From the NCBI RefSeq assembly GCF_016026235.1, contig NZ_CP065613.1: 64,000 nucleotides of DNA, one strand, 5' to 3'. The stretch comes from Escherichia coli (lineage in GTDB: Bacteria > Pseudomonadota > Gammaproteobacteria > Enterobacterales > Enterobacteriaceae). Shown here piece after piece: positions 1 to 3,000 of this stretch (positions are counted from its first letter, which is position 1; each line of letters starts with the position of its first letter). The position numbers are program-made.

Positions 1-3000
1 AGCCTCTCCACTTTGAGCCTGCTGAAACAAGGTGAGATCGCCAAAGTCCGTGTTAAAGGTCAGCTCACGCTTACGTTTGCTGACGCGGGCGATATCGGTG
101 TTATCCACCAGATGCAGGGCTTTAGTCGGGCACATCCGCACGCAGGCCGGACCTTGTTCATCAAAGCTACAAAGGTCACATTTGACGGCGATCGCGCGAA
201 TACCTGGCACCCAGTCAAGCAATGTGCTGACACGCGCCGGAGCAGGCGGTGCCGGTGGCGCTTTCGGGGTATTGGCGTTTGCCGGAATATCCAGCGGACG
301 GCTGCCGGAAAATTCAATTGCGCCAAACGGGCAGGCGATGCCGCACAGTTTGCAGCTTACGCACAGACTTTCATTCAACTGCACGGCCCCATCAACGCGG
401 GTGATGGCGTTAACCGGGCAGACCACCGCGCAGGGTGCATCTTCACAGTGGTGACAGAGCTGCGGCGCAGATTCTTTTTCATTTAGCATCACTCTCAGGC
501 GCGGCATTGATTGCAGGCCGTGCTGGCGATGCGTCTCTGAACAGGCGGCCTCACAAGTGTGGCAGCCGATACAGAGCGTGGAGTCAGCAATTACAAAACG
601 ATTCACCAGGCATTCCTCAGGTGATTGTCATTTTTGACGAAAACATGCCGATGAAATGTCATTTTCGACACTCATCGACACGCCCATCCCCAAACAGGCG
701 TAACGCCTGCAAAACGGGCAAAGCCTCAGCTCATGCTGCCGGGCTTTGTCCCTTTACCAGTTGGCTTAAATTCACCGGCACATTGTTTTCAATAGCGGTG
801 TATAAGCTGTCGTAAACGCCAGCGATTTTTTCGAGATAGTGTTCCAGAACCTGTTCGCGATCGCGGATGTTGACCTTGCCATCAATCATGCCGTCAATGC
901 TCAGTTGCGCCTGCGCAATCCGCTGTTTGTCTTCGCCATCTTTTGTTTCGACGTAATACTCGATGGTGTGGCTGTTAAAGCCATCCGCCAGGGTGACGTA
1001 AATACGAAAATGTTCAAAAAGGACGAAACAGAGTTCTTTGTCCGGCGCGCAGCTCATGGCGTGATGCAGGCGCGCTTTCGATAACGTGATCCCCTGAACC
1101 AGCGAATTGCAGTAGATGTGCCACTGGTCCTGTAGGCGACGATGCCGCTGTGCGATGTAATCGGCTTTCTCGCTTATTTCCCAAATAGTCATTGTCAGGT
1201 TACCCGTTTAACAGAGATGCCAGCTTTAAGCATTTTTTGTGCCAACTTTTAATTTATTGTTATTAAAGCGATTTTTAAGATTTTGGTGAATTTCGTCGCC
1301 GTGTCGACGTGTCATTTCGACATCATCGACATTATTCACTGTAGGGATAATCAACACTGGCACAATTATTGCTTGTAGCTGGCAATAGTTAATGGGAGGC
1401 GATATGCACGAAATAACCCTCTGCCAACGGGCACTGGAATTGATCGAACAGCAGGCCGCAAAACACGGCGCAAAACGCGTAACTGGGGTCTGGCTCAAAA
1501 TTGGCGCATTTTCTTGTGTCGAAACCAGCTCTCTTGCCTTTTGTTTTGATCTGGTTTGCCGCGGCAGCGTGGCGGAAGGTTGTAAACTGCACCTCGAAGA
1601 ACAAGAGGCCGAATGCTGGTGTGAAACATGCCAACAGTATGTGACGCTACTGACCCAGCGAGTCCGCCGCTGTCCACAGTGTCATGGTGACATGCTACAG
1701 ATTGTGGCAGACGACGGTTTACAGATTCGGCGGATAGAAATAGACCAGGAGTGAGCGATGTGTACAACATGCGGTTGCGGTGAAGGCAACCTGTATATCG
1801 AGGGTGATGAACATAACCCTCATTCCGCGTTTCGTAGCGCGCCATTTGCCCCGGCGGCACGCCCGAAGATGAAAATCACCGGCATTAAAACGCCTGAATT
1901 TACCCCCAGCCAGACTGAAGAAGGCGACCTGCATTACGGTCATGGCGAAGCGGGCACTCACGCGCCGGGCATGAGCCAGCGCCGGATGCTGGAAGTCGAA
2001 ATTGACGTGCTGGACAAAAATAACCGTCTGGCTGAACGCAACCGCGCGCGCTTTGCTGCCCGCAAGCAACTGGTGCTCAACCTGGTTTCCAGCCCTGGTT
2101 CCGGTAAAACCACCCTGCTGACGGAAACCTTAATGCGCCTGAAAGACAGCGTTCCGTGCGCGGTTATTGAAGGCGATCAGCAAACCGTGAACGATGCCGC
2201 ACGCATTCGCGCTACCGGCACACCAGCGATTCAGGTGAACACCGGTAAAGGCTGCCATCTTGACGCACAGATGATTGCCGACGCCGCACCGCGTCTGCCA
2301 CTGGACGATAACGGTATTCTGTTTATCGAAAACGTTGGCAACCTCGTATGCCCGGCCAGCTTCGATCTCGGTGAAAAACACAAAGTGGCGGTGCTTTCCG
2401 TTACCGAAGGTGAAGACAAACCGCTGAAATATCCGCATATGTTTGCCGCCGCCTCGCTGATGCTGCTCAACAAAGTTGACCTGTTGCCGTATCTCAACTT
2501 TGACGTTGAGAAGTGCATCGCCTGCGCCCGCGAAGTCAATCCAGAAATTGAAATCATCCTTATTTCCGCCACCAGCGGTGAAGGGATGGACCAGTGGCTG
2601 AACTGGCTGGAGACACAGCGATGTGCATAGGCGTTCCCGGCCAGATCCGCACCATTGACGGCAACCAGGCGAAAGTCGACGTCTGCGGCATTCAGCGCGA
2701 TGTCGATTTAACGTTAGTCGGCAGCTGCGATGAAAACGGTCAGCCGCGCGTGGGCCAGTGGGTACTGGTACACGTTGGCTTTGCCATGAGCGTAATTAAT
2801 GAAGCCGAAGCACGCGACACTCTCGACGCCTTACAAAACATGTTTGACGTTGAGCCGGATGTCGGCGCGCTGTTGTATGGCGAGGAAAAATAATGCGTTT
2901 TGTTGATGAATATCGCGCGCCGGAACAGGTGATGCAGTTAATTGAGCATCTGCGCGAACGTGCTTCACATCTCTCTTACACCGCCGAACGCCCTCTGCGG

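Follow-up and report, generated by a model that had tools for sequence, protein, structure and literature searches.

The closest described system is the hycA-hypA intergenic region of Escherichia coli K-12, for which Lutz et al. (1990) is cited as the source of "divergent NtrA-dependent promoters" (reference 35 in PMC3844500). Bonocora et al. (2015; PMC4591121) report K-12 sigma-54 ChIP-seq peaks at TTGGCACAAAAAATGCT (hycA) and CTGGCACAATTATTGCT (hypA), with both sites flagged as experimentally confirmed in EcoCyc, and gSELEX for sigma-54 also recovers the hycA/hypA spacer (PMC8743547). In Salmonella the hyc and hyp operons were sigma-54-dependent by microarray and positive by ChIP-chip, and they were assigned to FhlA (PMC3844500). 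IHF is given as an activator of hyc and hyp (PMC2636881). The FhlA consensus is CATTTCGTACGAAATG, as quoted from Leonhartsberger et al. 2000 in PMC4987338.

Here we describe the corresponding region in a stretch of 64,000 nucleotides of E. coli contig NZ_CP065613.1 (the window). Position 1 of the window falls within hycB, followed in order by hycA, hypA, hypB–E and fhlA. Positions 1193..1403 are exactly the 211-bp hycA-hypA spacer, bounded by both reading frames. The region is present in all but one of 5,426 complete E. coli genomes, and NZ_CP065615.1 (strain FDAARGOS_943) matches it best, at 100% identity and with the same two genes annotated. Almost certainly it is the divergent control region already described for the E. 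coli formate regulon. The hyc–hyp switch is already known, and the present one is a near-exact and ordinary copy of that in K-12. The features of the locus are as follows.

626..680, plus strand: second putative FhlA-type cluster, TGTCATTTTTGACGAAAAC ... TGTCATTTTCGACACTCATCGACA, in the hycB-hycA spacer, 100% the same as K-12
731..1192, minus strand: hycA, first gene of the hyc operon, FhlA antagonist, protein the same as in K-12
1198..1215: hycA leader and ribosome-binding region, conserved in the alignment of 63 distinct spacers
1228..1244, minus strand: promoter P_hyc, TGGCACAAAAAATGCTT, TGGCAC (-24) N6 TGCTT (-12), same in K-12
1250..1262, minus strand: IHF-type core, TAACAATAAATTA, one mismatch to WATCAANNNNTTR, between P_hyc and the upstream activating sequence (UAS)
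1263..1289, no strand: variable AT-rich spacer with low conservation, holding 6 of the 8 differences from K-12
1263..1299 and 1334..1357: spacers unconserved in the 63-spacer alignment
1290..1333, plus strand: putative FhlA-type UAS, with ATTTCGTCG, TGTCGACG, TGTCATTTCGACA and TCATCGACA
1300..1333: FhlA-type core conserved across genera, GACRTGTCATTTCGWCAnCRTCGWCA, from the 63-spacer alignment
1358..1374, plus strand: promoter P_hyp, TGGCACAATTATTGCTT, TGGCAC N5 TTGCTT, perfect consensus, same in K-12
1394..1401: hypA ribosome-binding site, conserved in the 63-spacer alignment
1404..1754, plus strand: hypA, first gene of hypABCDE(-fhlA), protein the same as in K-12
5095..7173, plus strand: fhlA, formate-responsive sigma-54 activator of 692 aa

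A sequence-only reading of this DNA had proposed two opposed -24/-12 elements flanking repeats of the TCGTCG and GACA type. The elements are present at 1244..1228 (minus strand) and 1358..1374 (plus strand) and face outwards, with the motif cluster between them. In both promoters the GG and GC doublets lie exactly 10 bp apart inside TGGCAC-N5-TTGCW, a consensus that P_hyp matches without mismatch (1358..1373) and P_hyc with one (1244..1229, ATGCT for TTGCT). Measured from the first T of TGG, the ATG is 46 nt away for hypA and 52 nt away for hycA. With GC assumed at −13/−12, transcription is predicted to start at about 1218 (minus strand) for P_hyc and at about 1384 (plus strand) for P_hyp, so that leaders of 26 nt and 20 nt would precede the ATG codons of hycA (1192) and hypA (1404). 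Table 1 of PMC4591121 gives predicted starts with the same geometry, at 26 nt (hycA) and 20 nt (hypA) from the start codon. The 17-mer of P_hyc is ChIP-seq site OS27 of that study and P_hyp is site OS28, whose occupancy score of 201 is the second-highest among the rows compared. Sigma-54 occupancy and rpoN dependence would carry over to this strain from the identical K-12 and the orthologous Salmonella sequences.

By itself the sigma-54 consensus shows no enrichment in the 64 kb: TGGCACN5TTGCW with at most one mismatch matches four times, and shuffled sequence gives 3.97. One of these, at 1108..1123 within hycA, was taken as a chance match; it encodes WHIYC and is absent among the hycA entries of PMC4591121 that were compared. 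The two promoters are regarded as non-random because of their context, namely an opposed pair in one divergent spacer, conservation in 88 of 88 loci and identity to ChIP-positive K-12 sites. Scans of 500..1900 for sigma-70 promoters and terminators gave nothing above shuffles. A "terminator" candidate at 1294..1309 was rejected as the CGTCG..CGACG portion of the UAS.

The repeats between the promoters occur on the plus strand as TCGTCG (1293), TCGACG (1304), TCGACA (1317) and TCGACA (1326), with TGTCGAC at 1302..1308. No other same-strand TCGWCR cluster in the 64 kb is as dense as these four copies (1293..1331), and at least four copies within 45 nt, anywhere in 64 kb, were obtained in 1 of 300 block shuffles. 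The stricter motif TGTCAT(2-5)YGWCR has only three occurrences in the 64 kb (626, 657 and 1310). The half-site ATTTCG is found at 1290 and 1314, 24 bp apart, against a window background of 0.67 per kb. The full 16-mer CATTTCGTACGAAATG reaches at best 9/16 in the spacer, which is within background, as 91 sites in the window score at least 10/16. Because the match to the 16-bp palindrome is only at background level, the assignment to FhlA rests on identity to K-12 and on the shared half-sites; with this basis the earlier description of the repeats as FhlA-like sites is approximately right. From the aligned sequences, the conserved unit of the putative enhancer is better written as TGTCATTTCGWCA followed by TCGWCA, which includes the TCG and GACA motifs noted before. 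Relative to the predicted starts, the UAS spans -72 to -115 for hyc and -51 to -94 for hyp. The former is the usual distance range for a sigma-54 enhancer and agrees with the ~70-150 bp expected between an FhlA-dependent UAS and its sigma-54 promoter.

Between P_hyc and the UAS, the alignment of 63 distinct spacers contains a conserved block, TAAnnnnTTGAT at 1250..1262, the IHF core WATCAANNNNTTR in reverse complement; the AT-rich arm of this IHF-type core reaches to about 1282. In 45 of 89 sequences the core, with up to one mismatch, has a fixed position +6/+7 relative to the hyc TGG. As a control, 10% of shuffled segments match equally well at any offset.

Alignment to K-12 had been suggested as the check on the sequence-only reading, and it shows promoter elements that are neither displaced nor mutated. 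Positions 1..7300 of the window are colinear with MG1655 at 98.63% identity and with zero gaps. The hycA-hypA spacer is of equal length, without indels, and carries eight substitutions, at 1269, 1280, 1282-1284, 1286, 1340 and 1342, with none elsewhere in 1005..1660. All eight lie within two stretches that lack conservation between genera as well. Both promoters, positions 1287..1339, the IHF-type core, the ribosome-binding sites and the hycB-hycA spacer are identical to K-12. The control region is intact, as had been claimed, in a gap-free alignment with promoters and motif cluster unchanged. The patch at 1280..1286 was considered as a micro-inversion of the K-12 sequence; this was ruled out, as its reverse complement fails to match. 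The central haplotype is rare, with at least 99% identity in 42 of 5426 E. coli genomes and the K-12 type at 93%. Seven E. coli haplotypes covering that identity range were compared; in them the UAS cluster (1287..1339) and P_hyp are invariant and variation is confined to the AT-rich spacer and the N positions of P_hyc.

HycA, HypA, HypC and the visible part of HycB are the same as in K-12. Relative to K-12, HypB and HypD carry one substitution each, HypE three and FhlA four (D109A, V163I, V625A and L640Q), of which V625A and L640Q precede the stretch judged by eye to be the C-terminal helix-turn-helix of FhlA. No frameshifts or internal stops were found from the hycB part to fhlA, which indicates that the switch and its trans-acting factors are preserved.

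In FDAARGOS_943 hycC is annotated as a pseudogene, and about 75–83 bp are missing at the hycC/hycD junction compared to K-12, at a position outside the window. NZ_CP065615.1, the closest complete genome, is 100% identical to the window over the three segments that were compared (1100..1500, 1235..1350 and 57500..62500). In view of this deletion in a relative, the intact switch is no proof of a working hydrogenlyase. If the deletion is common to the present strain, an intact switch drives a defective hyc operon. Regulatory intactness does not predict phenotype, and the outcome could be no gas despite a perfect promoter region. The window also has a copy of an IS element that occurs at about 33 places in NZ_CP065615.1, an inversion junction and a decayed cas3. 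Together with the relative's deletion, these fit a lineage in gene decay. A tandem repeat search of 25-42 kb found none.

The conservation of the locus was followed in species-representative genomes, in which loci were found by a pattern for the hypA N-terminus that is neutral to the spacer. Of the 120 loci obtained, 88 carry a divergent hycA homologue upstream (Enterobacterales, more than 20 genera). A sigma-54 element with 0-1 mismatch to TGGCAYN6TGCW is present on each strand in 88 of 88 loci; P_hyp has no mismatch in any of them and P_hyc has none or one in each. In Enterobacteriaceae the distance from the element to its gene is 43–50 nt for hypA and 50–53 nt for hycA. Both promoters, the IHF-type core and the FhlA-type core are conserved in the 63-spacer alignment. 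This conservation, together with the identical ChIP-seq sites listed for K-12 in PMC4591121, bears out the match to known formate regulon architecture put forward from the sequence.

The distances between these elements follow different rules on the two sides. From the UAS core to the hyc TGG only 44, 55-58 or 65-68 bp were found, values about one helical turn apart, in steps of 11 bp. The distance to the hyp TGG ranges from 46 to 637 bp overall and is usually 46-48 or 58-62 bp. In Buttiauxella, Cedecea and Shimwellia it is 75, 137–190 or 637 bp, with 67 bp on the hyc side. From this geometry we infer that the enhancer, the IHF-type site and P_hyc form a rigid, phase-locked module, with a looser arrangement for P_hyp.

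The second FhlA-type cluster, at 626..680, lies within the hyc transcript some 700-760 bp upstream of P_hyp, and its second half is nearly a copy of 1310..1331. A 28-column gapless matrix built from the cross-genus alignment recovered only its own source site; it missed this cluster because the length of the T-run varies by one base, and a regular expression allowing T2-5 worked. The block is kept in 18 of 18 genera inspected and takes the perfect form TTTCGTCA-N4-TGACGAAA in Serratia, Rahnella and Hafnia. With this cluster located beyond hycA, the control region is not wholly contained in 1193..1403. The term "compact" used for it earlier thus does not fully apply.

FhlA binding between hycA and hycB was reportedly described by Schlensog et al. 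in 1994, and later reviews are said to draw the hycA-hycB FhlA site as the hyp enhancer. Work on FhlA sites of the K-12 region is also attributed to Hopper (1994) and Leonhartsberger (2000), and the primary data on IHF to Hopper (1994). A full-text literature search yielded no usable description of the hyc/hyp UAS or of the hycA-hycB site. P_hyp would be served by the intergenic enhancer, by the 626..680 cluster, or by both, as judged from the comparative data. The hycB-proximal site is present in every genus inspected, even where the strict intergenic motif is unmatched. A wider reading would join several of these points: the geometry may be undescribed, the hycB-proximal site may, given its presence in all those genera, be the ancestral enhancer and act on P_hyp from ~0.75 kb away, on P_hyc from within the hyc transcript, or on both, and the strain may have a broken hyc operon behind a preserved switch if it shares the relative's deletion. 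Taken jointly, these propositions are rather unlikely to hold.

A simpler arrangement, which the earlier term "compact" implies and in which the intergenic cluster alone drives both promoters and the hycB-proximal cluster is irrelevant, is considered doubtful. The cluster is positioned between both promoters, and its distance to the hyp TGG is near-constant at 46-48 bp in most Enterobacteriaceae, the alternative of 58-62 bp being one turn more. However, a location at -51 to -94 from the hyp start is unusually near for sigma-54 looping, and the insertion of 75-637 bp before P_hyp in Buttiauxella, Cedecea and Shimwellia follows no phase rule, with the hyc side at 67 bp. The retention of the second FhlA-type cluster in every genus inspected, and the binding that Schlensog et al. 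reportedly saw there, also speak against it.

Much less probable is an RNA function of the second cluster, in which the palindrome at 626..645 (and 657..680) would be a hairpin governing the stability of the transcript or the translation of hycB. The palindrome is part of the hyc transcript, with the ribosome-binding site of hycB following about 20 nt later, and the inverted repeat is perfect in Serratia, Rahnella and Hafnia. Yet the arms keep their letters and show no co-variation; in E. coli TTGTCA ... TGACGAA pairs imperfectly while the half-site letters are kept. The same words occur in the non-transcribed upstream region of fdhF and in the intergenic UAS, and Rfam gave no family match anywhere in the window. 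The remaining alternative, that the motif matches arose by chance in an AT-rich spacer, agrees with the unenriched sigma-54 consensus and the match formed by hycA codons, but is already refuted, with next to nothing left in its favour, by the conservation of 88 of 88 loci at fixed start-codon distances, by the ChIP-seq occupancy of the identical K-12 sequences listed in PMC4591121 and by the statistics of the motif clusters.

In the reading preferred here, that of a divergent sigma-54 switch under FhlA, sigma-54 RNA polymerase would be present as a closed complex on the outward-facing P_hyc and P_hyp. FhlA, encoded 3.7 kb downstream, would bind the TGTCATTTCGWCA/TCGWCA repeats between the promoters and, with formate bound, would open them by ATP hydrolysis. 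The IHF-type site at 1250..1262 and its AT-rich arm may bend the DNA such that FhlA at about -93 reaches P_hyc. HycA as first product of the hyc operon would exert negative feedback on FhlA, and the position of fhlA downstream of the hyp genes would give positive feedback. Sigma-54 occupancy and the dependence on FhlA and formate are taken from the literature and would apply here. Bending by IHF, and the assignment of each enhancer to its promoter, are what we infer from the arrangement of the sites.

As a discovery the locus carries little weight, being a textbook case in which an enhancer-binding protein serves divergent sigma-54 promoters. Its value is in annotation, as the formate switch is preserved here along with the activator fhlA, the antagonist hycA and the whole set of maturation genes hypA–E. 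The sequence-only reading is refined by the IHF-type site, which it did not mention, by the second cluster, and by treating the state of the structural genes as separate from that of the control region.

Compared with known systems, the region is the same locus as the K-12 hycA-hypA region, with the same 211 bp, promoters, UAS, IHF-type core and flanking proteins, and it differs by the eight point substitutions in unconserved spacer, representing a minority haplotype. The divergent pair STM2853/STM2854 of Salmonella Typhimurium LT2 has the same 114-bp TGG-to-TGG spacing, whereas its promoters have TGGCAT where the present ones have TGGCAC, and its spacer letters are different. The upstream regions of K-12 fdhF and hydN-hypF contain the same word family (TTTCGTCA, TGACGA, TGTCA). 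In contrast to the hyc UAS, these enhancers serve one promoter each, differ in the number and arrangement of half-sites and are missing the strict TGTCAT(2-5)YGWCR motif. Enhancer sites in a short divergent spacer are likewise found in K-12 zraP-zraS and norR-norV and in ygeV-ygeW, the latter within this window with the following site.

59825..59840: ygeW sigma-54 site, TGGCACACTTATTGTT

Among the rows of Table 1 in PMC4591121 that were compared, norV and ygeW appear without their divergent partners norR and ygeV, whereas for zraP-zraS both sides have a site, as for hyc-hyp.

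The spacer between hycB and hycA carries, judged by its motifs, a second FhlA-type cluster at window 626..680, a near-duplicate of the FhlA-type core in the hycA-hypA intergenic region (1300..1333). The cluster at 626..680 does not differ from K-12 (MG1655) and is kept in 18 of the 18 genera inspected; it is probably the FhlA site that is reported to lie between hycA and hycB. Directly past the hycA stop codon, ahead of this cluster, lies a short hairpin, CAGGCGTAACGCCTG (695..709), followed on the hyc strand by TTTGGGG. It lacks the canonical form of a terminator, and its conservation does not extend beyond Escherichia.

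Within the hycA-hypA spacer, 1269..1286 differs from K-12 by six substitutions in 18 bp (ATTTTGG for CTAAAGA, plus position 1269). These substitutions form a rare spacer haplotype, matched at no less than 99% identity by 42 of 5426 genomes, and sit at the edge of the AT-rich arm of the presumed IHF-type site, in a stretch that is unconserved between genera. In other Enterobacterales, the hyp promoter is moved away from the enhancer by about 30 to 590 bp of inserted DNA (loci L107 from Buttiauxella agrestis, L078 from B. warmboldiae, L029/L054/L070 and L039), and the hyc side of the same loci is unaltered; the insert of B. warmboldiae is a palindromic, GC-rich, REP-like element.

FhlA (fhlA, window 5095..7173) differs from the K-12 protein by D109A, V163I, V625A and L640Q, the last two falling between the ATPase domain and a stretch taken by eye as the helix-turn-helix. 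In the closest complete genome, FDAARGOS_943 (NZ_CP065615.1), about 75-83 bp are missing from the end of hycC through the start of hycD (about 119..127 of its compared locus, L002, left of window position 1), and hycC is annotated as a pseudogene. Given this loss, hydrogenlyase may not be made in this lineage even though the switch is intact.

Farther along the window, the following features surround a change in gene order:

39159..40295, minus strand: decayed cas3, open frame of 378 aa
40474..41773: IS4-family insertion sequence of 1300 bp with 22-bp terminal inverted repeats
40497..41810, minus strand: IS transposase of 437 aa

The cas3 frame matches the 878-position profile only up to about position 330, and its terminal residues are unrelated. 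Left of the insertion sequence the gene order is that of K-12 (hyc, hyp, fhlA, mutS ... cysN, iap, cas genes); to its right (41.8-64 kb) follows the xdhD...ygeW/ygeV block, inverted, which in K-12 lies about 135 kb further on. This arrangement marks an IS-associated inversion junction at ~40.47-41.8 kb, which is absent in K-12 and in FDAARGOS_943. Sequence from the segment containing the element matches 33 places in FDAARGOS_943.

Two further sigma-54-type strings occur in the window:

1108..1123, minus strand: sigma-54-like string TGGCACATCTACTGCA, within hycA in the sense direction
59825..59840, minus strand: ygeW sigma-54 site TGGCACACTTATTGTT

The former consists of the codons for WHIYC, has no match among the hycA entries in the text of the K-12 sigma-54 ChIP-seq survey (PMC4591121), and is probably a chance match. 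The latter is OS30, listed in the same survey as the ygeW sigma-54 site, and adjoins ygeV, the gene for a sigma-54 activator; site and gene together constitute a second enhancer-dependent divergent region within the window.
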